Below are positions 22,082 through 37,643 of a stretch of 64,000 bases of DNA, one piece after another. Within the stretch, counting starts at the first letter, position 1. The number at the start of each line of letters is the position of its first letter. This DNA comes from Candidatus Latescibacterota bacterium. GTDB lineage: Bacteria > Latescibacterota > UBA2968 > UBA8231. The notes below the pieces were generated by a model, which was not told the origin of the DNA, did no database searches, and worked only from the letters and a program-made list of their open reading frames with translations. Position numbers and translations under genes: made by a program. The DNA lies in contig OZ220090.1 of NCBI GenBank assembly GCA_964291625.2, positions 96,001-160,000 on the forward strand, in the 5' to 3' direction.

Positions 22082-22115
22082 TCTCCTGGGTCCGGTGGGT
22101 CGGGGGCCCGTCGGC

Positions 22116-23213: not shown

Positions 23214-23220
23214 GGCTCTC

Positions 23221-25191
23221 TCAGTACACGGGGATCACGTTGCCCACCTTGCCGGTGAAGCCGTCGACGATGAGCCACAGGCCGCCGGAGACGATCTGCC
23301 CCAGGGCCATCCCCAGGAACAGGGGGCGGCCGCGGGCATAGGTGCGGGCCCCGCCGAAGCGCAGGACCAGGACCTTGAAGGCCCAGGCGAGGAAGACCGG
23401 GAACCAGAGGCGCTGCATGGCCCAGCCCATGCCCACGGGGTAGCCGATCGGATGCAGGGGCCACCAGGGGAGCTGCTGGCGGGCCAGGAAGAGCAGGCCC
23501 ATGACCGTGGCGCCGGCGCCCGTGTGGACCCATCCCTCGGTGCTGAACTGCACGGGAGCGACCAGCTGCTTGGCGGCGAAGTCCGCAGGCCTCGTGGCGA
23601 AGCTCTTGAAGTACTGGGAGTGCAGGTTGATGCCCCCGTGCTGGTGGGCCAGATCCAGCAGGAACCAGCAGGAGACGACCAGGGCCGCCGCCATGGCCAG
23701 GGCCACGGCCCCGGAGATGCGCCGCCGGTGGGGGCCGGTGTCGCTGCTCAGACGCAGGCCGTTGGCCAGGGGGGCGGTCATGAAGACCAGGAAGTCGCCG
23801 GTCCAGATGTAGGAGTAGCCGAGGGCCACCAGGCCCGTCGGACCCAGGGCCGGGGCGCCGACGCCGGAGAGCACGAAGCCGGCGGGGATCATGGCCGGCG
23901 TCACCGTGGGCAGGCCGGCCTCGGCGATGACCCGCGCCAGGCCGATGAAGAGCACCAGGGCGCAGACCACCACCAGCGGCACCACCAGGGGAGGCAGCCC
24001 CGAGCGCCACAGCCACAGGGACATGATCGCCACCCCCGCCGCCAGTCCGAGCAGGGCGGCGCGGTAGGAGAGGATCTCGGCCGAGTCGTCCACCTCGGGG
24101 GCCCGGCCGAAGGCCTTGGCCAGGACCTGGCGGAGATGGCCCCGCGCCGTCCACAGTCCGAAGAGGACGAGAACGGCGAGGGCCCCGGTCATCTCGTGGC
24201 CCACTCCCGGCTGGCTCCAGTCGCCCACCGACTGCTCGTACCCGCCGATGCCGAGGAGATGGAAGAGCCGGTCCTGGACGCGGTGCAGCAGGAAGAAGAA
24301 CCACAGGCCCATGGAGACGGACGACCCGATGAGGTAGGAGAACCCGAGGATCAGGAAGTTCACCGACAGGTCCAGGGGAATGCCGAAGACGACGACGCTC
24401 CCCGACATCCGGAGGGAAGGGAAGACGGCGCTGTACTTCGACAGGCCGTTGGTCAGGTTGATGAGGAGGGGGACCGACATGCCGATCCAGGTGAGCGGGT
24501 TGGTGAAGAACGGCGGCAGCCAGCGGCGGCCGGCGCCCTCGAGCATGGCCAGGGGCACCTGGGCCATGGGGAAGGCGAGGCGCTCGCGGTCAACCCACTG
24601 GCGGCGCAGCAGCACCATGGCGCACAGTTGCGCCAGGTAGAGGCCGAGGTAGAACACGGCCCACGACGCCAGGGCGGGCAGCCAGGCCTCCCAGAGCACG
24701 GCGCCGCCGCCCTCGAAGAACAGCTGCGCCGCCTCGGCGTCGGTGACCACCATCCACTCCGGCAGGTGGGGGTGGACCAGCTCTTCCCATCGATTCTCCG
24801 GCGTGGCGTAGTAGTCGTGGCCGCTGATCATGGGCAGCAGCATGCCCATCACCCCGCGCGTGGGGATGGCGGAGGCCACCATCATCATGAAGAACACGAC
24901 GATCAGCTCGCCGCGGCGCAGGGCCCAGCCGGCGCTCAGGCGGCGCAGCAGCGGCTGCACGAAGAGCAGCAGCAGGAAGAGGGCGAAGAAGGCGGCGGGC
25001 GTGGCCGAGCTCAGCCCCAGGCGGCTGCCGCGGATCAGCATGCTGCCGTAGGGCACGCAGACGGCGATGAGCACGCAGAAGGCGAGACCGATGAGGATGC
25101 TGCGGAAGGTGACCGCCGGACCGGTGCCGGCGGCGGTGTCCCCGCGCCGCGCGAGGTGGGCGCGGTACTCGGGGGGCAGGATGCGTCTCAC
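23221..25191 (-). CDS. DUF6785/DUF6784-like polytopic membrane protein (second paralog; start approximate)
   Basis: YYATPENRW, RRQWVDRERLAFP, WWPLHPIG, LRFGG...RPLFLG; colinear with 9657..11627. Confidence 0.8.
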   Translation of the reverse strand: MRRILPPEYRAHLARRGDTAAGTGPAVTFRSILIGLAFCVLIAVCVPYGSMLIRGSRLGLSSATPAAFFALFLLLLFVQPLLRRLSAGWALRRGELIVVFFMMMVASAIPTRGVMGMLLPMISGHDYYATPENRWEELVHPHLPEWMVVTDAEAAQLFFEGGGAVLWEAWLPALASWAVFYLGLYLAQLCAMVLLRRQWVDRERLAFPMAQVPLAMLEGAGRRWLPPFFTNPLTWIGMSVPLLINLTNGLSKYSAVFPSLRMSGSVVVFGIPLDLSVNFLILGFSYLIGSSVSMGLWFFFLLHRVQDRLFHLLGIGGYEQSVGDWSQPGVGHEMTGALAVLVLFGLWTARGHLRQVLAKAFGRAPEVDDSAEILSYRAALLGLAAGVAIMSLWLWRSGLPPLVVPLVVVCALVLFIGLARVIAEAGLPTVTPAMIPAGFVLSGVGAPALGPTGLVALGYSYIWTGDFLVFMTAPLANGLRLSSDTGPHRRRISGAVALAMAAALVVSCWFLLDLAHQHGGINLHSQYFKSFATRPADFAAKQLVAPVQFSTEGWVHTGAGATVMGLLFLARQQLPWWPLHPIGYPVGMGWAMQRLWFPVFLAWAFKVLVLRFGGARTYARGRPLFLGMALGQIVSGGLWLIVDGFTGKVGNVIPVY

Positions 25192-25455
25192 CCGGGCGGA
25201 AGATAGCGGCCCCGGAGGGGCTGCCCAAAGGCGGAGCCGCCTGCCGGCGGCAGCCGGGCCGCGTGCCCACCGGTCGGAAGGCCGGCGGCTCGATCCTGCG
25301 GCACCCCGTCCCGGAGCAGGTCGGGAGGGCCGGGAGGCCCCCGATCCACCCCTGGCTCCGTGATCCCGGCGCCGGGGGCGAACCGGCACACATCGACCCG
25401 GATCGTGTCGGAGGCTCGCGGGTTGGCGGGCCCCTCGACAGCCTGGAGCCTCTCC

Positions 25456-26754
25456 TCAGAGGCCTCGATCCGCGGCCTCGGCGGCGCTTTGCGCCTCCCG
25501 GCCGGACCAGCCGCCGCCGGCGCCGGGCTCGTGGAGGTCGCCGGGGATAGGCAGCACCTCCACGCCTTCGCCCTCCCCCTCGTCGAGGATGCGGAAGCGG
25601 CGGGCCACCACCTCGGCGCCGAACGGTCCGAAGCGGTTGGGGAAGCCCTGGTGGTCGCCGACCATGAAGACGCTGTCGTCGGGCAGGACGCAGGCCGAGG
25701 GGTAGTAGGCGAGGGGATCGGCCTGGAAGCCCCGGTCGGCAGCGGGCGTGACCCAGGTCTCGCCGCAGTCGCGGCTGTAGAGGACCTGGCCGTTGCCGCC
25801 GGGGCCACTGCAGGTTATCAGCACCACGGTCCCGTCCGAGAGCACCAGCAGGTCGCCCTTCTTCACGGCGTTCGGATGGGGCCGGCCCTCGGGCACGGGC
25901 AGATCCAGCAGCGGCCGCGGCGCCGACCAGGTGCGGCCGTCGTCGGCGCTCGTCGTCCACAGCCCCCAGGGGCGGGAGGCGGTGGCCAGGCGTCCGTCGG
26001 GCAGCCGCGCCAGGTGGCCCTCCTCCATATCCCGCTCCGGGTCGCCGAAGATCGACCGGGTCTCCCAGGTGGCGCCGCCGTCGCCGGAGTGCAGCAGGGC
26101 CATCACCCAGCGGGTCTCGGCCGCTCCCGGCACCGCGTGGCCGTCGACCAGCATCCACAGCCCGCCGTCGGAGGCCTCGGAGAGCGAGCAGGGGTGCTCC
26201 AGCCGCGTCAGGAAGGGTCCGCTGGTGCGGCCCCTCTCCTCCCAGGACTCGCCGCCGTCGCGGCTGCGGAAGACGGCGATCTGTTCGGGGAAGGTGCGGT
26301 CCATGCGCCGCAGGAACTCCACCGGGTCGGAGGGCAGCCGCCCGGCCCAGTACCATCCCGTCTGGATCAGCGCCCCCATGTACAAGGTGCCGTCGCCGTG
26401 CTGGAAGAGGGCCCCGGGGGCATAGGCGTCGGGCACGTCGGCCAGCACCCGGGGGCGCGACCAGGTGGCGCCGTCGTCGCGGCTGCGGGTCCACAGGATG
26501 CGGCCCCCCGTGGGCGCCTCCCAGGTGCCGCCGCCCTCGAACTGGGACTCCATGTACTCGGCGTGTTCCGGCGGCAGCTCGGGCCGCGGGTTGACCCACG
26601 AGGCGTGCCAGTACCCGGCGCTGAAGGCGACGAACAGCGTGCCGTCCCGCAGCCGGCAGATGCGCGGCCAGCCGCAAAAACCCCCGAAGCCGGGGAAGGG
26701 GTCCGGGGCGTTGACCGCGGGGGAGACGACGATCTTGCGGAGTTCGGATGTCAT
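25456..26754 (-). CDS. Sialidase-like / BNR (Asp-box) repeat protein
   Basis: Five Asp boxes: SRDDGATWS, SRDGGESWE, SGDGGATWE, SADDGRTWS, SRDCGETWV. Confidence 0.8.
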   Translation of the reverse strand: MTSELRKIVVSPAVNAPDPFPGFGGFCGWPRICRLRDGTLFVAFSAGYWHASWVNPRPELPPEHAEYMESQFEGGGTWEAPTGGRILWTRSRDDGATWSRPRVLADVPDAYAPGALFQHGDGTLYMGALIQTGWYWAGRLPSDPVEFLRRMDRTFPEQIAVFRSRDGGESWEERGRTSGPFLTRLEHPCSLSEASDGGLWMLVDGHAVPGAAETRWVMALLHSGDGGATWETRSIFGDPERDMEEGHLARLPDGRLATASRPWGLWTTSADDGRTWSAPRPLLDLPVPEGRPHPNAVKKGDLLVLSDGTVVLITCSGPGGNGQVLYSRDCGETWVTPAADRGFQADPLAYYPSACVLPDDSVFMVGDHQGFPNRFGPFGAEVVARRFRILDEGEGEGVEVLPIPGDLHEPGAGGGWSGREAQSAAEAADRGL

Positions 26755-26759
26755 GGGGA

Positions 26760-27050
26760 TCAGTCCGGCGGGAAAGGGAGACCGAGCTCCTTGACGAGGG
26801 AATCCAGTTCGGCCGGGGAGGTCCGACCCCGGCGGGAACGATGCAGGGCCGACAGCAGCCGCGCGGAGTTCTTCGGAGAGCGCAGGAGGTACACGGTCTC
26901 CTGAAGACTCCGCAGTTCCTCCGCCGGGACCAGGGCCATGGCCTCGTGGCCCCGTCGTTCGAGAATGGCCGGCTCCCGGCTCTGCTCCACGTCGTCCCAG
27001 ATCTCGGCCAGTCTCGCCCTCGCCTGGCTGCAGGGTATTCTCACGCCCAT
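26760..27050 (-). CDS. yefM: Phd/YefM family antitoxin (no toxin gene downstream)
   Basis: SQARARLAEIWD.V...REP.ILERRGHE..ALV...E..SLQETVYLLRSPKNSARLLSAL, the YefM signature. Confidence 0.85.
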   Translation of the reverse strand: MGVRIPCSQARARLAEIWDDVEQSREPAILERRGHEAMALVPAEELRSLQETVYLLRSPKNSARLLSALHRSRRGRTSPAELDSLVKELGLPFPPD

Positions 27051-27098
27051 GGCTTCGCTCCTTGCACTGCACAGGGATACAACCCTCGTCACACATGG

Positions 27099-28013
27099 TC
27101 AATCACCGCGACGCGGCAACCGGCGTCCCTCCCGCCGCCGCAGCTCGCCCAGCCGCCGGCCCAGCTTCTCCACCTCCTCCTCGATGAGGCGGATCTCGTC
27201 GCCGACGCTGATCTCGCCGTCGCGCTCGAGATGGCGCCGCCGCTCCTCGGCCTCCTTCTCGGCCTCGGCCTCGGACATGGAGTTGATGATCACGCCGATG
27301 AACAGGTTGAGCATGATCATGGTGCCGAACATCACGAAGGAGACGAAGAACGCGGCCCCGAGGAAGTACCGGCCCTGCGAGGCTTCGCGCAGGTGGGCCT
27401 GGGCCAAGTCGGCGTACCCCGGGTAGGCGTCGCTGCCGTACATCTGGATGTACATCACGTCGGTCCAGTCCTCCAGGGTCACCACCCGGAAGAGGGTCAG
27501 CAGCGACGTGGACAGGTCCTGGAAGTGGACGGGGTCGTTGCCGCGGAAAAGGAAGATTCCCATCACCGCGTACACGTAGAACAGGACCGCGAGCAGCAGG
27601 CCCACGTAGCCCAGGGAGGGGATCGACTTCAGCAGCGAGCTGACCAGCAGCTGCAGCCGCGGCACGGCCGTCACCAGCCGCAGGGCCCGCAGCACCCGCG
27701 CCAGGCGCAGCACCGCCGCGTACTGGCCTCCCACCGGCAGCAGGCAGACGACGACGATGAGAAAGTCGAAGACGTTCCAGGGGTCGGCGAAGTAGCGGTA
27801 CCAGCGCCGGCCGTGGCGCCCGATCTTGAGGGCCGCCTCGAGGGCGAAGATCCCCAGGACCACCCTGTCGAGGGCGTGCAGCAGCGAGCCGTGGGAGGCC
27901 ACCAGGTCCCGCGAGGTCTCCAGCCCCACCAGCGCTGCCGCCAGGACGATGACGGCCAGGACCCCGTGCTGGAAGGGGTCGGAGTCCACGAACCGGCCGA
28001 GTCGCTCGGTCAT
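27099..28013 (-). CDS. Bacterial voltage-gated cation channel (BacNav-like, 6TM), selectivity filter TLEDWTD
   Basis: S3 WNVFDF; S4 LRLARVLRALRL; P-loop LFRVVTLEDWTDVMY; S6 LNLFIGVIINSM; C-terminal coiled coil. Confidence 0.92.
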   Translation of the reverse strand: MTERLGRFVDSDPFQHGVLAVIVLAAALVGLETSRDLVASHGSLLHALDRVVLGIFALEAALKIGRHGRRWYRYFADPWNVFDFLIVVVCLLPVGGQYAAVLRLARVLRALRLVTAVPRLQLLVSSLLKSIPSLGYVGLLLAVLFYVYAVMGIFLFRGNDPVHFQDLSTSLLTLFRVVTLEDWTDVMYIQMYGSDAYPGYADLAQAHLREASQGRYFLGAAFFVSFVMFGTMIMLNLFIGVIINSMSEAEAEKEAEERRRHLERDGEISVGDEIRLIEEEVEKLGRRLGELRRREGRRLPRRGD

Positions 28014-28027
28014 CGGGTATGGGCGCT

Positions 28028-31000
28028 CTATGAAGGACGATTGGTCAGCGTTCGAAGTTGCGACAGGCCTTGGCGTGCGATCAGCTGCACGTCCTTCTGT
28101 CCTGCAAGGAGCTCCGCTTCACGCGTGAAGCCGGCGGCGTTCGTCACGACTATCGGCCGCGCGTCGCCCCGAATCGCATCGTCGTACACGGGGACTGAAT
28201 ACAGCACTTCCTCGACCGCTGCCGGGCCGCATTTGGCGTCAGGCTGGGTGTGCTTGCACTGCACCAGGATGGTGTGCTGCTCACCGCCCCCATCGAAGAA
28301 CGCCAATCCGTCAGCTCCGCGGTCTCCGCTTCGAGGCGTCTTGCGCGTGTCGTAGCCAGCCTCGGCAAGCTCTCCGAGCACCCACTCTTCGAAGGCCTCG
28401 GGTTCCATTATGTCGATCCTCTTCATCGGTACGTCAGACGGCGCATCGCTGCCCTGCGCCTGTGTCACGGTGGTTCGGTAGAGCTCACCCATGTCCTCCC
28501 TTGTAGCCGCGGTTGGAGCAAGCACACGGCGGTTCATCTCCCGCTTTCCTTCTATCAGGCTTTCGAGTTTCACGTCAAAGCTGTAATCGCCGAAGCGCGG
28601 GTGTCGAGCAATAGGCAGGTACACGTGCACGGGCCGGCTCTGGCCGATCCGAAAGACCCGGTCGGTGCACTGATCCTCGACCGCTGGGTTCCACCAGCGC
28701 GACAAGTGGATTACATGGTTGGCAGCCGTCAGGGTCAGGCCGACCCCGCCGGCGCGCGGCGACAGGATCATTACGTCGAAGCCAGTCCGGTCTTGGAACG
28801 TATCGACGCGAGCCTTGCGGGTTTCTCCGGCCACCGTGCCGTTTATGACCAGCACGTCCTCCGCCAGCGAGAATCGGCGTCTAAGCGTCCCCACTAGGAA
28901 GTCTTGCATCCAGCGCGCCTCGACAAAAACCAGCGCTTTCTCGCCGCACTCAGCGATCTCATGCAGAATCCTGAACGTCTCGGACAGCCGCGCAGACCCC
29001 TGGATGTACTTGTCGATGTCAAGTTCGTCTGGAGACGCCGGGTGCAGCGAGATGCTTCGAAGGCGATGGAGCGTCTGGAGCATGTTGCCGCCCAGTTCTG
29101 GTCCGCCTCCAATCACGATCTCCGCATACGCTTCGGCCTGCTCCTGTGGCATCTCCACGACGCGCCGGTGCACCTCCTTCTCCGGCAACTCCGGCACGTG
29201 GTCCTCCTTGAGCCGCCGCAGCATCAGGGGCAGTGCGGTATTAGTCCGACTCGTCAATGTGCTGTGCAGGTCTGCAAGCGCTGAGTCACCGTCAGTCTTA
29301 CTCTCGTACTTCCGGCTGAAATCCTTCAGGGTTCCGAACATCCCCGGTTCGGCCCGATCGAGCATCGACCAGATGTCCGCCGGCCGATTCTCCACAGGGG
29401 TGCCGGTCATCATCAGAGCGAAGTCGATGTTCATGGCAAGTGCGGCATCGGTCACGCGGGCGCCCGGGTTCTTGATCTTCTGGGCTTCGTCAAAGATGCC
29501 GGCGCGCCAACGGATGCGGCCGAAACTGTGCTGATAGTCGCGAAGGGTTTCATAGGTCGTGAGCACCCAGTCCGCGTCCTCCAGGGCCTGTAGGTCCAAT
29601 AGCGGTTGACCGCCCGGAAGTTCGCCGCGTCCGGAGGCGCCCTTTCTGAGATGACGTAAGGCACTCCCATGTGCTTCGACCACGCGACCCAGTCCGGCAC
29701 CCGACAGGTGTCTATCGTGTTCGTCCTTCCAATTCTTGAGCAGGCCCGTGGGAGCCACCACGAGCAGTGGCTGATGCGGAAGGTCCTCGGCTTCTACGTG
29801 CCTCTTCAGGGAAGACAGAAAGGCCAGTGCTTCCAGCGTCTTGCCGAGTCCCATGTCGTCGGCGAGCAGAGCGCCCCAGTTGCCGGCCTCCCAGTGTGCT
29901 TGCAGCCAGGTCAAGCCCTTCTGTTGATGCGGTAGGGGATTGGTCCGTAGGTCGGGGGCTGTGCCCGAGACGCCGGGCGTACGTTGTTTCCGCTCGCGAT
30001 GGAACCCTAGGTCATCCAAGTTGTCGATGACAAGCAGGACCTGATCCTTGGATTCGGGCTTGGGTTTGCACGGTCCACCACCTCCGCCGCCGCCGCCGCC
30101 GCTTGGGGGATCGATCGCCCGAATCTCCTCAAGGGACCCAATGGTCTCGGAGTTCGCGGGAATCTCGATCTCCCCTTGCGTGCTGATCCTGACCTTGACG
30201 GTCGATTCCCCGCGCTGGACCGCTGCCCTGACATGATCGAGCACGGGTTCCAATTCCTCAGGCGGGATGGCCACGCGCTGTCCGCCGATGAGGATCCCGA
30301 ATTCCTCGGGTGGCATCCACGGTTCCTTCGCCTGCTTAATCCAGGGGAGGACCTTGTCGGCCCAGATGCCGACACCCTTGACCCGCTCGCTCAAGCCCTC
30401 GTCGCTGAAGATGCTGTCGAGTTCGACATAGTTGCTGTCGTCGTCGAAGGCGCCGCGCAGGTACCCTGAGACGTTTCGCAGGAAGTCGCGCCGCTCGTCG
30501 GGTGTCCCGTCCTGGGCGCGCCGGACCACCGTAAGAGCCCGTTCGACCTCCGGCGTCAGGACGACGTAGGTGCCACCTCCGGAGGCGTACCGATGCTTCA
30601 CGCCGGACAGGCCGCGAAAACGCCGGGCAAACTCTCTCTGGCGGGCAGGCGGCATCCCAGGAGCGAATACCTGTTCCTCTTCACCTGCTTCGGTCGCCCG
30701 CGTCTCCTGCCGGCCGACGACCGGGTCGAAGTCGGGCTCTGCCTTGTCATTGAGGAACGGATGAATCTCGAAGCTCGAGGCCACGGAGATTCTCAGGGAA
30801 CGCAGGTTGTCATCGCCGACAACGGTGTCGGCAGGCAGCATCTCCGCGATCCGTCCCCACCGGAGCATACGCGACTCGATGTCCGACTCTTCCGCCCGGT
30901 TGAACCTGTCAATGGCGTCGGCGATGGAGTAGAGCGGATCGAGCAGCACGAAGTCCTCGCCAGCGACGCTCAGCCATGCGCCTTGGCGCTGAACCCGGAG

Positions 31001-31336
31001 GACGCGCCGGCCCTTACGGATATAGCCGCAGCGGACCTCGAAGTCGGGGTCCTGAATGGCGCCGTTCGCTACCACCTCGAGTGCGAATGGGGCAGCATCG
31101 GGCAGACCGACATATCGCAGTTCGTCCGAAGTCAGTTCGGCAACGCTCTTCCAGGAGACGCACAGGGCACTGCCATCGTCACACTCGGTCGCGCCGCCGT
31201 CGTCACGTAGTCGGCTCAGCACACCGGCCCCGGAGGGTCCTCGCAACGTCCACTCGCCAACGGGGAGGGCGCGATCCCCGTGGATCCGGACGATCAAGCC
31301 AGCCGACTTCGAGTCAAATACAAAGTCGTTCGACAT
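28028..31336 (-). CDS. zorD: Zorya protein ZorD (SNF2 helicase + Mrr-like nuclease)
   Basis: GGAG RBS; LADDMGLGKT, DEAQKIKN, TGTPVEN, RWWNPAVEDQCTDRVFRIGQ; C-terminal SGDRGADG...LVQCK; follows zorABC. Confidence 0.85.
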   Translation of the reverse strand: MSNDFVFDSKSAGLIVRIHGDRALPVGEWTLRGPSGAGVLSRLRDDGGATECDDGSALCVSWKSVAELTSDELRYVGLPDAAPFALEVVANGAIQDPDFEVRCGYIRKGRRVLRVQRQGAWLSVAGEDFVLLDPLYSIADAIDRFNRAEESDIESRMLRWGRIAEMLPADTVVGDDNLRSLRISVASSFEIHPFLNDKAEPDFDPVVGRQETRATEAGEEEQVFAPGMPPARQREFARRFRGLSGVKHRYASGGGTYVVLTPEVERALTVVRRAQDGTPDERRDFLRNVSGYLRGAFDDDSNYVELDSIFSDEGLSERVKGVGIWADKVLPWIKQAKEPWMPPEEFGILIGGQRVAIPPEELEPVLDHVRAAVQRGESTVKVRISTQGEIEIPANSETIGSLEEIRAIDPPSGGGGGGGGGPCKPKPESKDQVLLVIDNLDDLGFHRERKQRTPGVSGTAPDLRTNPLPHQQKGLTWLQAHWEAGNWGALLADDMGLGKTLEALAFLSSLKRHVEAEDLPHQPLLVVAPTGLLKNWKDEHDRHLSGAGLGRVVEAHGSALRHLRKGASGRGELPGGQPLLDLQALEDADWVLTTYETLRDYQHSFGRIRWRAGIFDEAQKIKNPGARVTDAALAMNIDFALMMTGTPVENRPADIWSMLDRAEPGMFGTLKDFSRKYESKTDGDSALADLHSTLTSRTNTALPLMLRRLKEDHVPELPEKEVHRRVVEMPQEQAEAYAEIVIGGGPELGGNMLQTLHRLRSISLHPASPDELDIDKYIQGSARLSETFRILHEIAECGEKALVFVEARWMQDFLVGTLRRRFSLAEDVLVINGTVAGETRKARVDTFQDRTGFDVMILSPRAGGVGLTLTAANHVIHLSRWWNPAVEDQCTDRVFRIGQSRPVHVYLPIARHPRFGDYSFDVKLESLIEGKREMNRRVLAPTAATREDMGELYRTTVTQAQGSDAPSDVPMKRIDIMEPEAFEEWVLGELAEAGYDTRKTPRSGDRGADGLAFFDGGGEQHTILVQCKHTQPDAKCGPAAVEEVLYSVPVYDDAIRGDARPIVVTNAAGFTREAELLAGQKDVQLIARQGLSQLRTLTNRPS

Positions 31337-31454
31337 GGCTATGCTCCATGGTGTCGGCTCATGGGCCCGGGAATCTGAACCCCGAGTCTTCCTGGCTTGA
31401 GCCGCACGGCATCCTGGCGGCAGGATCGGAGGATCAAGCCTATGGGCGGACGCC

Positions 31455-33341
31455 TCAGGTCGAGGACTTACCCCATATGACACGAGAACGCAGACGCGCG
31501 ATCGTCGAGTCCAGACGATCGAGCACCGTGTTCATCCGCGTCCCATGGCCCGGCACTCCGTGGTCCGCTGTGTAAGCCCCCCATGCCTGCGAGCTCGCAT
31601 CCATGAAGGCCCGCAGGTCCACCCGAAGCTTGCGGGCGGCCAAAACGGACCCCCGAACCTCCCGCAACTCCTGAAGGGCTGCTGCGGCGCCGCCCCCGGT
31701 CGTCGGCTTGGGTCGGTCCGCCAGTTCCTGACCGGAGACACCCTGCGGGATGCGGCGAACCGGCACGTCCTTGTGGATCGTCTCTGTCAGGTCGGTCTGC
31801 GACGGGCCACCATGGATGTTCGGCGCGGCGGCCTGACTATGGGCTCCCCGGGCCGAGAGTGTGTAGCGCGGATGGTGGTCGGTCTGCCCTTCCTGCAGCC
31901 TGTCCGGAAAGTACTTGGCGCGACTGATCTCGACGCCGGTGTTGTCTCGAAGCCAGTGGGCGATCCAGTCCTGCCAGCGGCCCTCGGAGCTGCCGTCGTG
32001 CCGTTGCAGGAAGTCCGGGTCGCCCACCAGATCCTCACGGGAATACGTACCCTTGTACAAGGCTGGCGCGCCAGGGGTCCCGTCAAGCCAAAACCGGCAC
32101 GCTCCGTTGTGGCTCCATTCAGCGATGGTAACTCCGGGCAGGCGCAGCAAGAGCACCGACTGATCGCCTTGGGCGCCGCGGAGGATGGAGGTCGCCTCGT
32201 CTTCCTTCTCCCTCTCGTTCATCTTCTCCAGGAGCCTTTCCGCACGCGGACCCAGCACAAACCAGACATCTGGCTCCAGGGGAAGGAAAGCCCGCCAGAA
32301 GGCTTCCCGGTAACGCCAGTGTCTGTCGAGCGCTGTATCCTTGACGAGCAGGAAGAACTGTTCGAGCGCGCGTTCGACAAGCCATCGGATCACGACGCGC
32401 CGGACATCCTCCGGAATGCCAGACCACCTGTGTTTGCCGGACTGCAGGCGGGGGTCTCCGAAGTGATGGAGGAAGAACGGCTGCAGGAGTTTCTTCGTCG
32501 CTGGCTCCGGGCCGCGGTCGGCACAGGGACGGAGCAGTGCGGCGGCGACTTCCGAGCGCATGGGCAAGTCGTCGAAACGTAGCCTGCCCTCGCACTCAAG
32601 GAGCGCGAGCACTCGCACGAGTTGCGTGTCGTCGACGCTGTTTCGCGCCAACCGGGCGCTGAGCGATGGGAGGAACTTGCGGATGCCTGACTCCAGAAAA
32701 CTGCACCGTGCGAGTCCGGCATCGAACCCTGCCTGGCCCAGAAAGTGATCAACTGGGTCAGTGGCCGAAGTCAACTTCTCTACGAACGACAGGTCCCCGT
32801 CCTTTTCCAGAAGCCCGAACTCCGCACTACGTTGTGTCCATTTGTGCAAAGACGGAGGCGGCAAGGCAGTGCCATTCAGGGTCTTCTCCAGTACCCTCCG
32901 CAGATCGTCAAACGTCTGCAGGCCGACGGGATAGACACGCAAGAACTCGAGAAGCAACGCCCGTACAGAGCTAGCCCGGTAACCGTCGGACAGCCATCGA
33001 TCGTACTCCCGCACAAAGCCGGGCTGGAGACCCAGCCAGCCGGTGGGACCCTGGCGCTTCATGTGATTGTCCTGCCCGGGGGGATAGAAGAGCACGAATG
33101 GAACCCTCCGCAGGTCGCGTGCAGAGATCCGTTCGAGGGAGTTCTCGCGCCCCCAGGACTCCCTGATCCGCTGATACAGCTCTTTCTGGTCGTAGGGTTC
33201 GGGCTCTGTCAGTTCCATACCACCGAGTTGCTCTTCCACTTTGCGGCCTGCAGCACGGATGTGCCGTGGCTCGAGCACGTCCGCGACCTTCGGTGGACCG
33301 GTCCAGCCCTTCAGCGAGTCCTTCAAGGAAGACATCTTCAT
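31455..33341 (-). CDS. zorC: Zorya protein ZorC (EH-signature domain)
   Basis: FGDPRL...W, HWRYREAFW, TIAEWSHNGACRFW, RHDG...WQ; ATGA overlap with zorB. Confidence 0.85.
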   Translation of the reverse strand: MKMSSLKDSLKGWTGPPKVADVLEPRHIRAAGRKVEEQLGGMELTEPEPYDQKELYQRIRESWGRENSLERISARDLRRVPFVLFYPPGQDNHMKRQGPTGWLGLQPGFVREYDRWLSDGYRASSVRALLLEFLRVYPVGLQTFDDLRRVLEKTLNGTALPPPSLHKWTQRSAEFGLLEKDGDLSFVEKLTSATDPVDHFLGQAGFDAGLARCSFLESGIRKFLPSLSARLARNSVDDTQLVRVLALLECEGRLRFDDLPMRSEVAAALLRPCADRGPEPATKKLLQPFFLHHFGDPRLQSGKHRWSGIPEDVRRVVIRWLVERALEQFFLLVKDTALDRHWRYREAFWRAFLPLEPDVWFVLGPRAERLLEKMNEREKEDEATSILRGAQGDQSVLLLRLPGVTIAEWSHNGACRFWLDGTPGAPALYKGTYSREDLVGDPDFLQRHDGSSEGRWQDWIAHWLRDNTGVEISRAKYFPDRLQEGQTDHHPRYTLSARGAHSQAAAPNIHGGPSQTDLTETIHKDVPVRRIPQGVSGQELADRPKPTTGGGAAAALQELREVRGSVLAARKLRVDLRAFMDASSQAWGAYTADHGVPGHGTRMNTVLDRLDSTIARLRSRVIWGKSST

Positions 33342-34192
33342 TGCGTCCCTTCTCCATACCGTTCTCGGACATCGGTCTGGACCTCCGGTTCGGCAGGCGC
33401 CAGCGCTCCCTCGGGAGGTTCGAGCAGGAACCGTAGGTCGATGCGGCGGTTCTCAGCGGTTCGCCCGGTATCACGAGTCGCGGGCCGGGTATATCCGTAT
33501 CCGCTAGTGCTCAGGATGGGGTAGTCGTCGGTGCTCAATAGGCGTTCCACGCCGGGCTCACAGGCGGCGATCATCCGGTGCACGGTCGCCGCCCGCATGG
33601 ACGACAACTCAAGGTTGTCCTGGAAGCGGTTGCCGGTTGCTACCGGCACGTTGTCGGTGTGCCCCTCGATCAGCAAGGTCTCGAGTAGCCAGGGAAACTC
33701 CTGCTTCCTGCAGTCGTACGTGGAGGGGTCTGCCGGGGGCTGACAGTAAGACAGCGCCCCCTCGCCAATCCGCAGCGCGGTTGTCGCCTGTCCAGGTGAG
33801 ACGTAGCATGGGACGACTTCGGCGATGGCCTGCGCAAGGCGGCCAACGTTGAGGTGATGCTCGGGAACCGGAGTCTCACGACCTGACGGAAAGTTGATGG
33901 CATTGTCCGACAGCCGCAGGACACCCTGGTCGGCCAGTACTTCGACTCGCATGCCGGCTTTCTCGAGTCGGCCCTTGATGTCCCGTAGCATTCGAGTGCG
34001 CGTCTTTTCTTCGGCTTCTAGATCTTCCACTCTATCTTCTTGTCTCTTGGTGACGTTAGCGAGCTGATACGCGAACACGGCCAACATGATGATGAAGATG
34101 AAGATGAGGGCCGACACAAGGTCGCTGACACTGGCAAGGTAGTTGTGCCCACCCTGCCCCTCGGCCGGGGACGGCCTCGATTCGCCGATCAT
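33338..34192 (-). CDS. zorB: Zorya protein ZorB (MotB/OmpA-like)
   Basis: TM helix with the conserved Asp (SVSDLVSALIFIFII); IEGHTD, NLELSSMRA, SGYG, ENRRIDLRF. Confidence 0.9.
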   Translation of the reverse strand: MIGESRPSPAEGQGGHNYLASVSDLVSALIFIFIIMLAVFAYQLANVTKRQEDRVEDLEAEEKTRTRMLRDIKGRLEKAGMRVEVLADQGVLRLSDNAINFPSGRETPVPEHHLNVGRLAQAIAEVVPCYVSPGQATTALRIGEGALSYCQPPADPSTYDCRKQEFPWLLETLLIEGHTDNVPVATGNRFQDNLELSSMRAATVHRMIAACEPGVERLLSTDDYPILSTSGYGYTRPATRDTGRTAENRRIDLRFLLEPPEGALAPAEPEVQTDVRERYGEGTQ

Positions 34193-35919
34193 CGCGGCGA
34201 TCCCGGAAGACGCGGAATGAGGTCCTCGATCGCCCCGCTTAGTTCGGCGGTTGCACTGGCAAGCTGTTGGACTGTATTGGAGGTTGTCTTGTCGAGTTCA
34301 ATGGCGAATTGTTGCACCTGAGCGCAATACCTCGACAACCCCTCGTCGAACTGCTGGAAAACATCGACGAGCGAGTTGTCGATTCCCTCGAAGCGGCTCT
34401 GGTATTCTGTCCAGGCAGTTGCGACCTGCTGCTGGTGTCCTTCCAGGGTGGTGATCGAGGCTTCCACACGGCCGACTAGGTCGCTCGTCTGCGTCAGGGT
34501 CCCCGCCGTGCGGTCAGCCGATTCCTGCATGTCACGTGCTGCCCGCTCCACCGGTTCAGCAACGCCAGCTATCTGTTCGTGCGTCGATTCAATGGTGCCG
34601 CGCAGAGCATTGAGCCTCTCGACGAATTGGTTCATTCCCGACAGCATCTTCTCGGTTTGCATCGAAGCGAGTTCGAGATTCTCGGCGGCCCTCTGCAGAC
34701 CGCCCAGCGACCCGGCGATCTGCGAGGCCGCACTGACCCCAGTCTCGGCCAGCTTCTGCGTCGCGGAATTCACCGTGCTTTCCAGTTCCGCCGCGGCTTC
34801 CTTGCCGGAGGCGGCAAGCTGATTCGCCAGTTGTTCAGACGCGTCGGCGAGAGCGCGGGTTACCTCGTCCAGCGACTGTTTCAGCGTCTCGGTCATTGCC
34901 GAGGCGCCTGAGTCCATCGCGGTCTGGACTGCCTGCTGTGTCTGCGCCAGGGCGCCGGCGGATTCCTTGAGCGTGCGGTTCAGGCCGTCGACGGTGGTCG
35001 CCATGTCTTCGAACTGCGAGCCGGTCCTTTCCTGTAGTGCATCGAGAAACCGGATAAGTGCCTGTTCGATCATCTGGCCGCTGTCAGTTGCCCTGTCCTC
35101 CCGCAGTCTTTCGACGGCCTGAAGAAGCTGTTCCAGTTGCGGGGACAGACGGCCCGCGATCTTCTCCTCGAGTGCCTGCTCGAGGGAGAAGATCAGATCG
35201 GTGTTGAATCGCTCGAGTTGCCTCGTTGTGCGCTTTGCCTGGTCGAGCTGCTCAAGAGCAACGCCCTCCGAAGTGACCCGCTCGACTCGTGACTCGATAC
35301 CTCCAACCCACTGGTCCAGTGCCTTGTGGAGCCCACGGGAGGCAAAGCGCTCGACCAATACGAATAGGATGGAGCAGCCAATGCCGACGATGGAAGTCCA
35401 GAAAGCCAGGGATGCCCCACCCAGAAGCTTCTGAAGAGCAGCCGTGATCTGGCGTGCATCTTCGGAAGACAATCCTGACTTCGCGGCGCCGACCCCGGCG
35501 GCCAGCCCTAGGAACGTGCCAAGAATGCCGACGCCGGTGAGAAGGTTGGGAACTGCCTGGAAGAAACCCGCAGACATCCGGGGAAAGACAATGGTGGCGT
35601 CGTTCAGGTACCGGGAGACCTCGCTTGTGTTACGGATCGGGTCTCCAGACTCAGGTTCGGGGAGAATCAGGGTCTCCACGAATTCGGTCCATGCCAAGCC
35701 GAAGGCCTCATTGACCCTGCGATCATAGCCTTCGAAGCCCCTGGCAAATCCTTCTTCACCATCCAGATTCTTCAGGTCTCCATGTGCTCGGCGCAGCTTG
35801 AGCCGCAAGGGGCCGAGTTGGCGGATCAGCAGCAGGACGGAAACAGCGAGGAATACGACAATGCCAATGCAGTAGTACGTGACGAAGGTAGACGAGAGGG
35901 CGAAGTCGAAGCTCAGCAC
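34189..35919 (-). CDS. zorA: Zorya protein ZorA (MotA-like TM region + long helical tail)
   Basis: Three TM segments including PNLLTGVGILGTFLGL and AFWTSIVG, then a long A/Q/L/E-rich helical tail; GTG start overlaps the uma2 stop. Confidence 0.85.
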   Translation of the reverse strand: MLSFDFALSSTFVTYYCIGIVVFLAVSVLLLIRQLGPLRLKLRRAHGDLKNLDGEEGFARGFEGYDRRVNEAFGLAWTEFVETLILPEPESGDPIRNTSEVSRYLNDATIVFPRMSAGFFQAVPNLLTGVGILGTFLGLAAGVGAAKSGLSSEDARQITAALQKLLGGASLAFWTSIVGIGCSILFVLVERFASRGLHKALDQWVGGIESRVERVTSEGVALEQLDQAKRTTRQLERFNTDLIFSLEQALEEKIAGRLSPQLEQLLQAVERLREDRATDSGQMIEQALIRFLDALQERTGSQFEDMATTVDGLNRTLKESAGALAQTQQAVQTAMDSGASAMTETLKQSLDEVTRALADASEQLANQLAASGKEAAAELESTVNSATQKLAETGVSAASQIAGSLGGLQRAAENLELASMQTEKMLSGMNQFVERLNALRGTIESTHEQIAGVAEPVERAARDMQESADRTAGTLTQTSDLVGRVEASITTLEGHQQQVATAWTEYQSRFEGIDNSLVDVFQQFDEGLSRYCAQVQQFAIELDKTTSNTVQQLASATAELSGAIEDLIPRLPGSPR

Positions 35920-36488
35920 GATAGACGATCCGCAGGAAAGAGCCGCCGCACGTCGCACCGGAACCCCGGCAAAACGTCGCCGCCGTCGAGGTCCTGCTCC
36001 GTTCCCACCACCTCGACCTCCCGGGCCGACCCGTACAGGTGGACCATCCGGGTTTCCGGCTCCACGAGCCAGACCAGGCGAGTCCCGGCCGCGAAGTACT
36101 CGGCGATCTTGACGTGGACATCCGCGAGGCGGTCCGACGGAGAGACGACTTCGACGGCCAGGTCTGGAGCGAAGGGCCAGTAGCCCGCGGGGATGCCTGT
36201 CTCGGGAATGCGGGACTTCAGCACGACCGCAGCGTCCGGGGCGCGTACCGTATCGGGATCCCGCTGGAGAATGAACCCGGTCTCGGCGCCGCAGCAGACG
36301 CCGAGGTCATGCGCTTCGACATGCTCGTCCAGGAGACGCCCGATGCGTACCACCAGAGCGCCATGTTCGCCACCTGTCGGGGTCAGGTGGGCCAGCTCTC
36401 CCTGGACGAGCTCAACCCGACTGCCATCCTCCGGCAGGTCGAACAGCTCTTCTGCTGTGATGGGTGGGTGCGGGGCGGAGAGGGTCAT
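35913..36488 (-). CDS. Uma2 (DUF820) family PD-(D/E)XK endonuclease
   Basis: AAGGAGGT RBS; ELVQGEL, RAPDAA, PDLAVEVVSPSD, KIAEYF.AGTRLVWLVEP, VLPGF. Confidence 0.9.
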   Translation of the reverse strand: MTLSAPHPPITAEELFDLPEDGSRVELVQGELAHLTPTGGEHGALVVRIGRLLDEHVEAHDLGVCCGAETGFILQRDPDTVRAPDAAVVLKSRIPETGIPAGYWPFAPDLAVEVVSPSDRLADVHVKIAEYFAAGTRLVWLVEPETRMVHLYGSAREVEVVGTEQDLDGGDVLPGFRCDVRRLFPADRLSC

Positions 36489-36539
36489 GGAGGATGGACC
36501 TCCTTGATCATGGCCGGTGCTTGTCTCGACCGAAAAGGC

Positions 36540-36575
36540 GACAGGCACTTGACCCGTTGTGGCCAAGTGCCTGTC
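36540..36575 (-). terminator. Hairpin downstream of tRNA-Phe (putative terminator or processing stem)
   Basis: GACAGGCACTTG...CAAGTGCCTGTC 12-bp inverted repeat, followed on the minus strand by GCCTTTT. Confidence 0.65.
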
Positions 36576-36593
36576 TTCCCGTTGGAACAGTAG

Positions 36594-36669
36594 TGGTGGC
36601 TCCTCGCGGAATCGAACCGCGGACACAGGGATTTTCAGTCCCCTGCTCTACCAACTGAGCTAAAGAGCC
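36594..36669 (-). tRNA. tRNA-Phe (GAA)
   Basis: Reverse complement GGCTCTTTAGCTCAGTTGGTAGAGCAGGGGACTGAAAATCCCTGTGTCCGCGGTTCGATTCCGCGAGGAGCCACCA; 76 nt cloverleaf with encoded CCA. Confidence 0.97.
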
Positions 36670-36688
36670 AGTCTCGAACGAAGCGCCG

Positions 36689-36718
36689 AATATATCCGCC
36701 CCCCCGAAAGATTGTCAA
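36689..36718 (-). promoter_or_regulatory. Sigma70-type promoter for tRNA-Phe
   Basis: TTGACA-18 nt-TATATT on the minus strand, about 20 nt upstream of the tRNA. Confidence 0.75.
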
Positions 36719-36733
36719 GGAGAAGAGCCGAAG

Positions 36734-37300
36734 ATGGCGGTGACCGTGATCCCATTCCAGATGCCGGAGCCCGCGGCGATCCCGGAGCACATCACCGGGC
36801 ACCTGCGGCAGATGCCCGCCGACGCGGCGATGCGCCGCGGCATGGAGCTGCTCATGCAGATCGAGGTGGCCCACCTCATGCTCTGGGAGCGGGTCGACGG
36901 CGAGGGCCGGCTGCACCTGCAGGAGGTGCTGTCGAAGGAGGGCTCGCCGGAGCAGATCCGGGAGAGGCTGTCGGCCGAGCCGTTCTACGGACAGCCCGTG
37001 AATGAGGCCTCCTCGGGGCTGGCGGGGCGCGCCTTCGAGGCCGGCCAGTCGCTGCTGGTCATGGGCCAGCAGTCCGCCGGGGAGGAATCAGGCCTGCCTC
37101 CCGCCCTGGCCGCCCACCTGCTGCCGGACGGCGCCGGCAACGTGGGCTTCCTCTACGTGCTGACCCTGGCCGACGGGGACGGCCCGCCCCTTGGCGCCCT
37201 GACCTTGGTGAGGCCCGCCTCCGAGGGGCCCCTCAACCACGAGCAGCCCAACATCACCGAAGCGATGCGCCGCCTCCTGTCGCAGATCCTGGCCGCCTGA
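36734..37300 (+). CDS. Hypothetical GAF-like domain protein
   Basis: AAGGAG RBS; GLAGRAF..GQSLLV and LYVLTL...PLGALTL resemble a GAF fold. Confidence 0.6.
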   Translation: MAVTVIPFQMPEPAAIPEHITGHLRQMPADAAMRRGMELLMQIEVAHLMLWERVDGEGRLHLQEVLSKEGSPEQIRERLSAEPFYGQPVNEASSGLAGRAFEAGQSLLVMGQQSAGEESGLPPALAAHLLPDGAGNVGFLYVLTLADGDGPPLGALTLVRPASEGPLNHEQPNITEAMRRLLSQILAA

Positions 37301-37312
37301 CGGGCCGTACAC

Positions 37313-37351
37313 ACGAACGCCCGCCAGCCCCTGGGGGCTGCGGGCGTTCGT
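37313..37351. terminator. Hairpin between convergent genes
   Basis: ACGAACGCCCGC-CAGCCC...GGGCTG-CGGGCGTTCGT inverted repeat. Confidence 0.65.
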
Positions 37352-37373
37352 CGCTTCTGGAGGTCTGGGCGGT

Positions 37374-37643
37374 CTACCGGGCCAGGGCCCCGACGACCTG
37401 GTTCTTCACCATCCACGCCTCCACTTCCTCGCCGCTCACGTCGGCCAGCACCTGGCCGTTGATCTCGACGCACGGAGAGAGGGGCTGGCCGGTCTTCTGG
37501 ACCATCTCGGCGTAGTGGTCCGGGTTGCCGATGATGTCCCGGTCTTCGTACTCCAGCCCATGCCGGTCGAAGACCTCGCGAACCCCCGCGCTCCAGCCGC
37601 AGACGGGCTTGAGCCAGGCGGTGATCTTGGGTGCGTCGGCCAT
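37374..37643 (-). CDS. Monothiol glutaredoxin-like protein
   Basis: KPVCGWS active site; TGQPLSPCVEING; AGGAG RBS. Confidence 0.85.
   Translation of the reverse strand: MADAPKITAWLKPVCGWSAGVREVFDRHGLEYEDRDIIGNPDHYAEMVQKTGQPLSPCVEINGQVLADVSGEEVEAWMVKNQVVGALAR

Follow-up and report, generated by a model that had tools for sequence, protein, structure and literature searches.

The window analysed here, 64,000 nucleotides of a Candidatus Latescibacterota genome (G000), bears an islet of about 8.5 kb in which a gene of the Uma2 family leads the four genes of a type I Zorya system. The reading that we favour, with a probability of about two in three, is that of a canonical Zorya (uma2-zorABCD) in a variable site adjacent to tRNA-Phe, where uma2 is an autonomous nuclease gene and the channel gene behind zorD is a flank of the host.

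Organization of the locus

On the minus strand the order is tRNA-Phe, uma2, zorA, zorB, zorC, zorD and a voltage-gated-type channel gene (Table 1). The junctions described in the sequence-only reading were all confirmed: the stop of uma2 overlaps the start of zorA (GTGCTGA), both zorA/zorB and zorB/zorC overlap by ATGA, and the channel ATG stands 14 nt past the zorD stop (TAG). The overlap of zorC with zorD amounts to 23-29 nt, according to which start is assumed. The start of zorA was set by alignment, with the ATG (of ATGA) of its relatives one codon downstream of the GTG at 35919. A simple scan found no promoter-like site within the run, and terminator-like sites occur there at chance rate (6 found, 6.3 expected from shuffles). 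The promoter and terminator scans also placed a promoter-like TTGACA-18-TATATT at 36718-36689, near tRNA-Phe, and the first convincing terminator-like site past the run in a hairpin at 26696-26681, behind the Phd/YefM-type gene, of which another genome of the genus (G007) has a 74% identical copy.

Table 1. Features of the uma2-zorABCD islet and its flanks (positions in the window).
Feature	Position	Strand	Description
tRNA-Phe(GAA)	36594-36669	-	ARAGORN; conserved landmark of the host, upstream of the islet
Hairpin and T-run 3' of tRNA-Phe	36531-36573	-	Likely tRNA terminator; read from the sequence
Inserted islet	28016-36511	-	Leader, uma2, zorABCD; 8,496 nt; blastn of G002 against the window
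uma2	35913-36488	-	191 aa; leads the islet; Pfam Uma2 PF05685 1e-34; AAGGAGG before ATG
zorA	34189-35919	-	576 aa from GTG at 35919; PADLOC ZorA1 7e-49
zorB	33338-34192	-	284 aa; PADLOC ZorB1 1.4e-63
zorC	31455-33341	-	628 aa; PADLOC ZorC1 4.6e-112; Pfam EH_Signature
zorD	28028-31483	-	1151 aa; PADLOC ZorD1 2e-295
Spacer, zorD stop to channel start	28014-28027	-	14 nt; sequence
BacNav-type voltage-gated channel	27099-28013	-	304 aa; Pfam Ion_trans 2.3e-48
Phd/YefM-type antitoxin-like gene behind the channel	26760-27050	-	Pfam PhdYeFM_antitox 3.9e-17; host-side flank

The Zorya system

The four genes had been called a type I Zorya (ZorABCD) from the letters alone, and rightly so, as each of them matches a PADLOC model, with Pfam matches in addition. 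They form one unit on a single strand in the order zorA-B-C-D, which is also present in 45 of the 48 related loci. ZorA joins a MotA/ExbB-like membrane part to a long helical tail, with weak coiled-coil-type Pfam matches at residues ~200-580, and matches ZorA chains in PDB (8vvn_C, 3e-16; 8qyd_A, 1.7e-9). ZorB is MotB-like and harbors an OmpA-type peptidoglycan-binding domain (Pfam OmpA 2.2e-5, below the gathering score). Its alignment with 8vvn_B (1.6e-18) includes the Asp at the start of the membrane helix, in an 'SDL' stretch, which we take to be the proton-carrying Asp. The EH_Signature domain of ZorC (PF15611, 5.5e-41) extends over residues 27-462; of the candidates scored, 172 are related to the protein at E<=1e-20, and the PDB sequences gave no match. 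ZorD is an SNF2-type helicase/nuclease (Pfam SNF2-rel_dom 1.1e-48, Helicase_C 1.4e-12, Mrr_cat 1.5e-16), which aligns with E. coli ZorD (8qy7_A, 5e-79) and keeps the DEAQ box (DEAQKIKNP aligned). According to excerpts of PMC11946911, this box is required for nuclease activity.

With the type I Zorya of E. coli NCTC9026 (PMC11946911; PDB 8qyd for ZorA, 8qy7 for ZorD) the system shares the four co-directional genes zorA-B-C-D, a long-tailed MotA/ExbB-like ZorA, a MotB/OmpA-like ZorB, an EH_Signature ZorC and an SNF2-type ZorD with DEAQ box. It differs in a shorter ZorA (576 aa, against 729 aa in the solved E. coli chain), in a C-terminal Mrr_cat domain added to ZorD beyond the part that aligns with the E. 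coli protein, in a ~150-aa C-terminal stretch of ZorC that is absent from most relatives, and in the uma2 gene coupled to the start of zorA. As expected from the published E. coli work, ZorA5B2 would be a motor driven by protons and anchored to peptidoglycan, its long ZorA tail reaching into the cytoplasm. Upon phage entry, the motor would recruit and activate the DNA-binding ZorC and the helicase-nuclease ZorD, and these would degrade the phage DNA; the ZorD described here has an extra Mrr-type nuclease domain.

Borders of the islet and comparison within the genus

Comparison of the window with G002, a genome of the same genus, by blastn showed that homology stops at 36512 and restarts at 28015, and 28016-36511 is without counterpart. 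In G002, tRNA-Phe is followed after 183 nt by the channel gene; the channel is 97% and the EPSP synthase 95% identical to those of the window. Two further genomes of the genus have uma2 behind tRNA-Phe and are free of Zorya, G004 with ~106 nt and G007 with a 988-nt low-GC gene of unknown kind between uma2 and the channel. EPSP synthase adjoins tRNA-Phe in all three genomes, and the alignment shows that the hairpin and T-run at 36531-36573 are kept in them, being the last stretch common to all genomes of the genus. These data place the islet past the tRNA-Phe terminator and ahead of the start codon of the resident channel gene, where it would have been inserted. Whether Zorya was gained in G000 or lost in G002, G004 and G007, either event could account for the difference; in G004, ~14 nt past uma2 resemble the start of zorA, perhaps as the vestige of a Zorya since lost.

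The composition of the islet differs from that of its surroundings and points to a foreign origin, with GC of 0.60-0.65 versus about 0.70-0.75 in the flanks. Third-position GC (GC3) is 0.71-0.75 for zorA-D, 0.79 for uma2 and 0.94-0.96 for the host-side genes (EPSP synthase, channel, BNR, DUF6785, MR_MLE).

The channel gene as host flank

The product of the channel gene is of the BacNav type, with a single Ion_trans domain, an S4 with an Arg repeat (RLARVLRALRL) and the pore motif TLEDWTD. Its PDB matches are bacterial channels (4bgn, NavMs, NaChBac and NavAb-type; 3e-50 to 3e-35). Like NaChBac, NavMs and NavAb (PDB 6vwx, 6sx5, 5klb, 4bgn), it has one six-helix domain, Arg at every third position of S4, a pore loop and a C-terminal helical tail. 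TLESW-type pore motifs characterize sodium-selective members of BacNav; the TLEDWTD motif is more acidic.

The sequence-only reading had proposed an extended Zorya with the channel as an added part, for which a recurrent and foreign channel gene would be expected. No channel relative was found within about 10 kb at any of the 48 other ZorC-bearing loci (tblastn, E<=1e-4), and none of the 81 co-directional ORFs directly behind zorD, at 39 loci, matches Ion_trans in Pfam. The PADLOC models gave no match for the channel either. Codon usage is host-like, as had already been remarked (GC3 0.957 versus 0.71-0.75 for zorA-D). A channel match is present in 17 of 41 relatives, with full-length orthologues of 76-93% identity in G004, G007, G011, G012, G013, G017, G019 and G023 and the 97% copy of G002 split across two contigs. 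In the family, seven genera have orthologues (76-97% identity). Of the 41 genomes, 2 gave a ZorC match, namely G000 and, as a 26% match elsewhere in the genome, G019. The arrangement named beforehand as telling against the extended system was also found as regards the channel: tRNA-uma2-channel in G004 and G007 and tRNA-channel in G002, all without Zorya. We conclude that the channel is the host's own neighbouring gene, a flank of the islet and not a part of Zorya, which agrees with the caveat of the sequence-only reading that the adjacency may only mark the border of the island.

A co-transcribed voltage sensor that was drawn into the system and couples membrane potential to the ion-driven signal of ZorAB, or amplifies it, is in our judgement very improbable and, given these counts, the host-like GC3 and the Zorya-free relatives, close to refuted. 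For it speak the gap to zorD of only 14 nt, without terminator, the fact that ZorAB and the channel both handle ion flow at the inner membrane, and the probable dependence of channel expression on the islet, because the channel lost most of its upstream DNA to the insertion. The 14-nt spacer resembles the stretch before the channel starts of G002, G004 and G007 in a short and weak alignment match, and looks like the last piece of the native upstream DNA of the channel. With the channel as a vertically inherited host gene, read-through from the islet is probable because the gene now starts 14 nt past zorD, and would be a side effect and not a design. For Zorya biology this calls for caution, as a tightly placed, co-directional membrane channel can be an insertion scar and not a clue to the ion-driven motor.

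The uma2 gene and its linkage to Zorya

The Uma2 protein is a full-length family match (profile positions 2-171 of 172). Its gene family is very widespread and, to our knowledge, no function is known for it; the PDB relatives (3ot2, 9y1l, 1wdj) are all uncharacterised. D85, D109 and E113 do not vary among 11 orthologues and are predicted to be catalytic by analogy with the PD-(D/E)XK fold family, a survey of which lists Uma2, in its excerpted text, as a predicted endonuclease (PMC3424549). Among the same orthologues, dN/dS of 0.12-0.22 denotes purifying selection. Four PADLOC PDC-S03 models match the protein (best 3.5e-18), from which we infer that PDC-S03 is a Uma2-family model. PDC-S03 is a single-gene 'phage defence candidate'; such candidates were derived by guilt-by-embedding (bioRxiv 10.1101/2024.01.29.577857). 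The gene described here likewise adjoins a multi-gene defence system, the type of context that yielded such candidates; unlike them, it leads a Zorya and is not embedded in BREX, DISARM or type I RM. The gene most likely encodes an autonomous nuclease, a single-gene defence candidate of the PDC-S03 kind, and the locus offers a defined, testable context for the function of a Uma2 protein.

We surveyed 168 genomes of the phylum, related to one another, and found ZorA in 10 of them, which limits the sample to 10 Zorya loci. At nine of the ten, uma2 or a decayed remnant abuts zorA, and the linkage is therefore real. An obligate part would be expected to stay intact wherever the system is kept, and the counts speak against this: uma2 is intact at four loci (G000, G126, L024, L030), decayed or a remnant at five (L025, L026, L028, L029, L034) and absent from one (L044). 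The proposal of the sequence-only reading that uma2 is an addition to Zorya thus stands as far as a recurrent linkage within the phylum is concerned; against an obligate part speak the decay, the other cargo found behind the gene (see below) and its absence beside Zorya at all 37 loci of other phyla. Loci with decayed uma2 were judged to hold an intact Zorya from a single criterion, that each zor gene is covered by one uninterrupted tblastn match, and several of them are without the Mrr part of ZorD. At L029 and L034, two of these five, a second uma2 copy lies a few kb upstream, and in G092, the genome to which L025 belongs, a different contig bears an intact one; at these three loci Uma2 may thus be supplied in trans.

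Wherever uma2 is intact, the overlap of its stop with the zorA start is kept, and zorA is without an obvious Shine-Dalgarno sequence of its own, which gives the appearance of translational coupling between functional partners. In comparison with locus L024, uma2 is 80%, ZorB 73% and ZorD 73% identical, against only 39% for EPSP synthase. Among G000, G004 and G007, dS is 0.42-0.58 for uma2 versus 0.17-0.24 for the adjacent channel, and the uma2 of G007 is closer to that of G127 (88%) than to that of G000 (83%). As judged from these sequences, uma2 moves horizontally with Zorya.

Could Uma2 be a genuine fifth part of Zorya, in a subtype found only in this phylum? It would then be an accessory nuclease, translated together with ZorA, that either augments the breakdown of DNA by ZorC and ZorD or controls it. 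The linkage at nine of ten loci, the conserved overlap, the co-transfer with the zor genes and the low dN/dS favour this reading. We nevertheless hold it to be unlikely, since five of the nine loci have only a decayed uma2 beside zor genes with uninterrupted matches, G094, G096 and G099 have Zorya and no close uma2 orthologue anywhere (E<=1e-65), and the closely related Zorya locus L044 is without any trace of the gene. Conversely, five of the 11 genomes with close orthologues are without Zorya and a sixth has an internally deleted one. Outside the phylum, besides the 37 loci mentioned, the type I Zorya systems of E. coli and Pseudomonas function as four genes, according to excerpts of PMC11946911. 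Uma2 therefore looks dispensable for the retention of Zorya, and we regard it as a real but lineage-specific neighbour. In the favoured reading it is the ancestral 5' neighbour of the Zorya clade of the phylum, and the type I Zorya of the phylum as a whole goes back to a cassette headed by such a nuclease gene.

Variable cargo behind uma2

Close uma2 orthologues (E<=1e-65) are present in 11 of the 168 genomes, and what stands behind them varies. It is zorA directly in four (one being the internally deleted Zorya), a ParE-like pair with PDC-S11 and then Zorya in one, and GmrSD-type nucleases in two; in the remaining four no recognised defence gene was found behind uma2. Direct repeats consisting of the uma2 3' end and ~17 nt of the zorA start were identified at three loci. 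In L034 (4329-4472 and 7293-7436) and L029 (6053-6225 and 7247-7411) they flank an insert, and in L025 (49-161 and 8613-8726) they lie on either side of the whole Zorya. A 3' remnant of uma2 also precedes the GmrSD/HNH gene of L085, and the uma2 3' terminus occurs in two types distributed as a mosaic across genera, G000 going with L024 and G007 with L030. The repeats suggest that the uma2 3' end and the zorA start are a joint where cassettes may be swapped by homologous recombination. Insertion of other defence genes at this joint is a repeated occurrence.

A more active role for the gene would make it the working anchor of the exchange. Cassettes (Zorya, GmrSD-type nucleases, or PDC-S11 together with a toxin-antitoxin pair) would enter, replace one another and be lost at a site formed by the uma2 3' end and the opening codons of the gene that follows, and Uma2 would either introduce the break from which the exchange proceeds or serve as an additional effector, coupled to the translation of ZorA. 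We consider this unlikely; if true, it would be a new, integrase-free way of assembling defence islands. The stricter version, in which Uma2 is the mobility part itself, a homing-like site-specific nuclease whose cut, at the 3' end of uma2 or close to it, drives insertion and exchange of the cargo behind, appears distinctly unlikely. The flanking repeats, the remnant of L085, the mosaic of terminus types, the variable cargo and an islet without integrase or transposase speak for it, but ordinary homologous recombination explains the repeats equally well. Moreover, nuclease activity or a target site is known for no Uma2 protein, the survey cited above listing the family as a predicted endonuclease, and a 12-bp palindrome at the L024 junction is not conserved in G000. 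Among 80 metagenome loci with distant uma2 relatives (42-64% identity), of which 45 have at least 1 kb downstream, none has a Zor match in the stretch of DNA covered.

Genomic islets adjacent to tRNA genes and defence hotspots with conserved flanks are a known type. The site presented here resembles them in its variable slot, whose contents differ among four genomes of the genus, and in host flanks that stay the same, with tRNA-Phe at one end and the channel at the other. It differs from tRNA-adjacent islets in that neither an integrase nor a transposase, nor a direct repeat of the tRNA 3' end, was found in the islet of the window. The locus is an example of the turnover of defence cassettes without a recognisable recombinase, its recurring element being a nuclease gene with its 3' end repeated at the cassette borders.

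Organization of the uma2-zor islet

A canonical type I Zorya system sits in an 8.5-kb, uma2-led islet (28016-36511, minus strand) beside a tRNA gene and a channel gene of the host. The sequence-only reading had tentatively joined the Uma2 nuclease, ZorABCD and the voltage-gated channel into one extended Zorya system. Its gene identities were confirmed, each gene being named alike by Pfam or PADLOC, and its junction strings are all present in the window sequence, namely GTGCTGA at uma2/zorA, ATGA at zorA/zorB and likewise at zorB/zorC, and a spacing of 14 nt from the zorD stop to the channel ATG. Additionally, zorC and zorD overlap by 23-29 nt.

Features of the islet and its immediate flanks in the window
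Feature	Position	Strand	Characteristics
Sigma-70-like promoter match	36689-36718	-	TTGACA, 18 nt, TATATT; 11/12
tRNA-Phe(GAA)	36594-36669	-	promoter-like site before, hairpin with T-run after
uma2	35913-36488	-	Pfam Uma2 1e-34
zorA	34189-35919	-	PADLOC ZorA1 7e-49
zorB	33338-34192	-	PADLOC ZorB1 1.4e-63
zorC	31455-33341	-	PADLOC ZorC1 4.6e-112; Pfam EH_Signature
zorD	28028-31483	-	PADLOC ZorD1 2e-295; SNF2, Helicase_C, Mrr_cat
Channel, 304 aa	27099-28013	-	Pfam Ion_trans 2.3e-48; no PADLOC match
Phd/YefM-type antitoxin-like gene	26760-27050	-	next after the channel
Terminator-like hairpin	26696-26681	-	beyond the phd gene

The promoter match preceding tRNA-Phe is the sole one in 26000-37500, and the promoter scan found none in the approximately 40 nt separating the tRNA hairpin and the uma2 start. 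No integrase or transposase was found among the annotated genes inside the islet. Integration of the tRNA type was considered and set aside, since the list of the 20 largest repeat families in 20000-37000 shows no directly repeated tRNA-Phe 3' end at the distal border of the islet.

The Zorya genes

The Zorya of the window is a regular type I system. ZorA and ZorB match the solved ZorA and ZorB chains in a PDB sequence search, which returned no solved sequence relative for ZorC, a full EH_Signature protein. The structure of E. coli ZorD (8qy7) aligns with the window's ZorD at 5e-79. The DEAQ box, described as required for the nuclease activity of the E. coli protein (PMC11946911), is retained. 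Unlike E. coli ZorD, the window protein bears an extra Mrr_cat domain past the end of the alignment. According to the published account of E. coli Zorya, the entry of phage is sensed by ZorA5B2, a motor driven by protons, and the ZorA tail recruits ZorC and ZorD, with degradation of the phage DNA (PMC11946911). The same mechanism can be assigned here by homology: phage entry would be sensed by ZorA5B2, ZorC and ZorD would be recruited through the ZorA tail and the phage DNA would be degraded.

The Mrr_cat domain occupies C-terminal residues 1024-1143 of ZorD (window 28028-28415, minus strand). At the loci of five close relatives (L026, L028, L029, L036 and L043) the tblastn match to ZorD stops near residue 1011-1017, and Mrr_cat is seemingly missing. 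ZorC residues of about 480-628 (window 31455-31900, minus strand) form a C-terminal stretch of ~150 aa without a Pfam match; most ZorC relatives have 480-520 aa and span just 75-80% of the window protein, and the extension is common to a subset of about 580-640 aa. Two Zorya loci of another phylum are interrupted, one (L047, 13000-16309) by an insert of about 3.3 kb that splits zorD at residue 512 and the other (L046, 7069-8387) by an insert of about 1.3 kb that splits zorA at residue 342.

The channel gene and the same site in the genus

The channel gene belongs to the host, and the idea that it is part of an extended Zorya system is refuted by its occurrence at the same site in relatives without Zorya, by its absence from the other Zorya loci surveyed and by its host-like GC3. 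Specifically, the channel has a GC3 of 0.957, close to EPSP synthase (0.955), BNR (0.945), DUF6785 (0.936) and MR_MLE (0.948), and zorA-D range from 0.71 to 0.75. Among 41 related genomes searched, 17 have a channel match, and eight genomes of seven genera carry full-length orthologues with 76-93% identity; ZorC was found in just two of the same 41, the window's own genome (G000) and, as a 26% match elsewhere in the genome, G019. An alignment of 27 ZorC proteins led to 48 loci on contigs taken at one genome per species, each with flanks of up to 10 kb, and none of them contains a channel relative within that distance (tblastn, E ≤ 1e-4). Without L046, L060 and L061, whose Zorya is incomplete, 45 loci remained, of which 39 provided 81 co-directional ORFs behind zorD (start -200 to +500 nt from the zorD end); a Pfam scan found Ion_trans in none of these ORFs.

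Three genomes of the same genus present the site in different states. In G002, which lacks both uma2 and Zorya here, the order is EPSP synthase, tRNA-Phe, 183 nt and channel; homology with the window breaks off at 36512 and resumes at 28015, the channel copy is 97% identical (split over two contigs), and the slot holds only a remnant of an unknown gene. G004 has EPSP synthase, tRNA-Phe, uma2, about 106 nt and the channel, its slot combining uma2 with the same remnant. G007 has EPSP synthase, tRNA-Phe, uma2, a low-GC stretch of 988 nt, channel, phd, BNR, DUF6785 and MR_MLE; the stretch (10557-11546 of its locus L013) holds the unknown gene, which is split into ORFs of 97 and 207 aa, apparently by a frameshift, and has neither a Pfam nor a PADLOC match. 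The start of this gene is what survives as the short remnants in G002 and G004. G000 bears uma2 and zorABCD in this slot. A recent gain of zorABCD in the G000 lineage is favored because the GC3 of zorA-D is unameliorated. Zorya may instead have been lost from the G004 lineage, since about 14 nt behind its uma2 resemble the zorA start.

Transcription of the islet likely reads through into the channel, because the insertion left the latter only 14 nt of upstream DNA; such read-through would be a consequence of the place where the islet landed. We also considered whether this spacer, together with the channel ATG, duplicates the motif of the uma2/zorA junction at the right end, and rejected this since G002 has the native ATG and a similar short upstream stretch and since no common end motif was found behind zorD across the sequences of ten relatives. 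The start codon is ATG in the window and G002, and GTG in G004 and G007.

The pore motif of the channel, TLEDWTD, is kept in all eight orthologues compared, from six genera. Sodium-selective bacterial channels carry a less acidic, TLESW-type motif, and by its more acidic pore this family might be calcium-selective. In the G007 channel, an in-frame TAG (L013, about 10118-10120) replaces Tyr146 of the other orthologues, with the remaining frame open and 93% identical; a sequencing error, recent pseudogene formation or a stop that is read through may account for it. No toxin gene adjoins the phd gene, the next ORF being the BNR-repeat protein; the GC3 of phd (0.81) is below that of the host neighbors, and the G007 copy of phd is 74% identical, compared with 91-93% for the flanking genes.

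Linkage of uma2 and zorA in the phylum

The Uma2 part of the proposal fared better, as a linkage that is recurrent, specific to the phylum and apparently dispensable. A tblastn search of the 48 loci located uma2 relatives directly before zorA in several loci of Candidatus Latescibacterota. ZorA was detected (E ≤ 1e-30) in 10 of 168 genomes sampled from the phylum: uma2 is intact and abuts zorA at four of these Zorya loci (G000, G126, L024 and L030), is decayed or reduced to a 3'-end remnant at five (L025, L026, L028, L029 and L034) and is absent from one (L044). In other phyla, uma2 abuts zorA at none of 37 usable Zorya loci, and a scan of co-directional ORFs of 70 aa or more, present at 30 of these loci, gave no Uma2 match. 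At the loci with an intact uma2, its stop and the zorA ATG share the string ATGA, with a 12-nt insert after the ATG in L030. In G000 a CTG replaces that ATG and a GTG stands one codon upstream; the relatives' ATGA, aligned one codon downstream, supports the zorA start previously proposed at the GTG of GTGCTGA.

Between G000 and L024, uma2 is 80% identical and ZorB and ZorD 73% each, compared with 39% for the EPSP synthases, and none of the related loci adjoins a tRNA-Phe. These comparisons mark the linkage as both old and horizontal. More distant uma2 relatives from metagenomes (42-64% identity) had no Zor match at any of 80 loci, just 45 of which have at least 1 kb downstream; this result neither strengthens nor weakens the linkage of the close orthologues. 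In our literature search, no paper was found naming Zorya together with Uma2, and Uma2 as an endonuclease in defense islands received passing mentions only. The Zorya of G126 is degraded (L087, 2465-5127): behind an intact uma2, zorA residues 4-421 run straight into zorD residues 871-1147, and the deletion has removed the remainder of zorA, all of zorB and zorC and most of zorD.

uma2 as a separate gene

Uma2 is not read as an obligate fifth Zorya gene because it decays beside kept zor genes, precedes varied cargo, is under selection of its own, matches PDC-S03 and belongs to a multi-copy family. At the five loci with a wrecked uma2, zorA-D are each spanned by one uninterrupted tblastn match, and three of these genomes (G094, G096 and G099) have no close uma2 orthologue (E ≤ 1e-65) anywhere. 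Of the 168 phylum genomes, 11 carry close orthologues (68% identity or more). Behind them, zorA follows directly in four, including G126 with its internal deletion; in one (L034) a ParE-like pair, a PDC-S11/DUF4268 gene and a uma2 3' remnant precede Zorya; two (L085 and L086) have GmrSD-type nuclease genes and four (G004, G007, L083 and L084) no recognized defense gene. With a dN/dS of 0.12-0.22 and the acidic core, D109 and E113 included, kept in all 11 orthologues, uma2 appears to be a functional gene in its own right. Its product matches the PADLOC PDC-S03 models (PDC, "phage defence candidate"), which stand for putative single-gene defense systems picked out because they lie embedded within other systems (bioRxiv 10.1101/2024.01.29.577857). 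The family has five matches in G000.

The uma2 3' end

The last 110-170 nt of uma2, with about 17 nt of the zorA start, recur as direct repeats, which flank inserted DNA in L034 (144 nt, 83%) and L029 (173 nt, 77%) and the whole Zorya in L025 (114 nt, 85%). The 3' terminus exists in two forms with a mosaic spread, G000 sharing that of L024 and G007 that of L030. Among G000, G004 and G007, synonymous divergence is two to three times higher in uma2 (dS 0.42-0.58) than in the adjoining channel (0.17-0.24), and the G007 uma2 is closer to that of G127 (88%) than to those of its genus mates (83-84%). Given the dS excess, the closeness of G007 to G127, the mosaic termini and the repeats, the uma2 alleles at this site did not simply descend together with their flanks. 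We infer that the uma2 end may serve as a recombination joint, with exchange by homologous recombination; that Uma2 itself anchors or drives the exchange of cassettes is improbable. A 12-bp palindrome across the uma2 stop and zorA start of L024 was given no weight, as G000, L026 and L028 do not conserve it.

The insert of L034 (4329-7436) measures 2.96 kb and lies, with the 144-nt direct repeats at its ends, between an intact uma2 and the uma2 3' remnant before zorA. Its cargo consists of the ParE-like gene, a small partner on the opposite strand and the DUF4268 gene (PADLOC PDC-S11, 2.4e-109).
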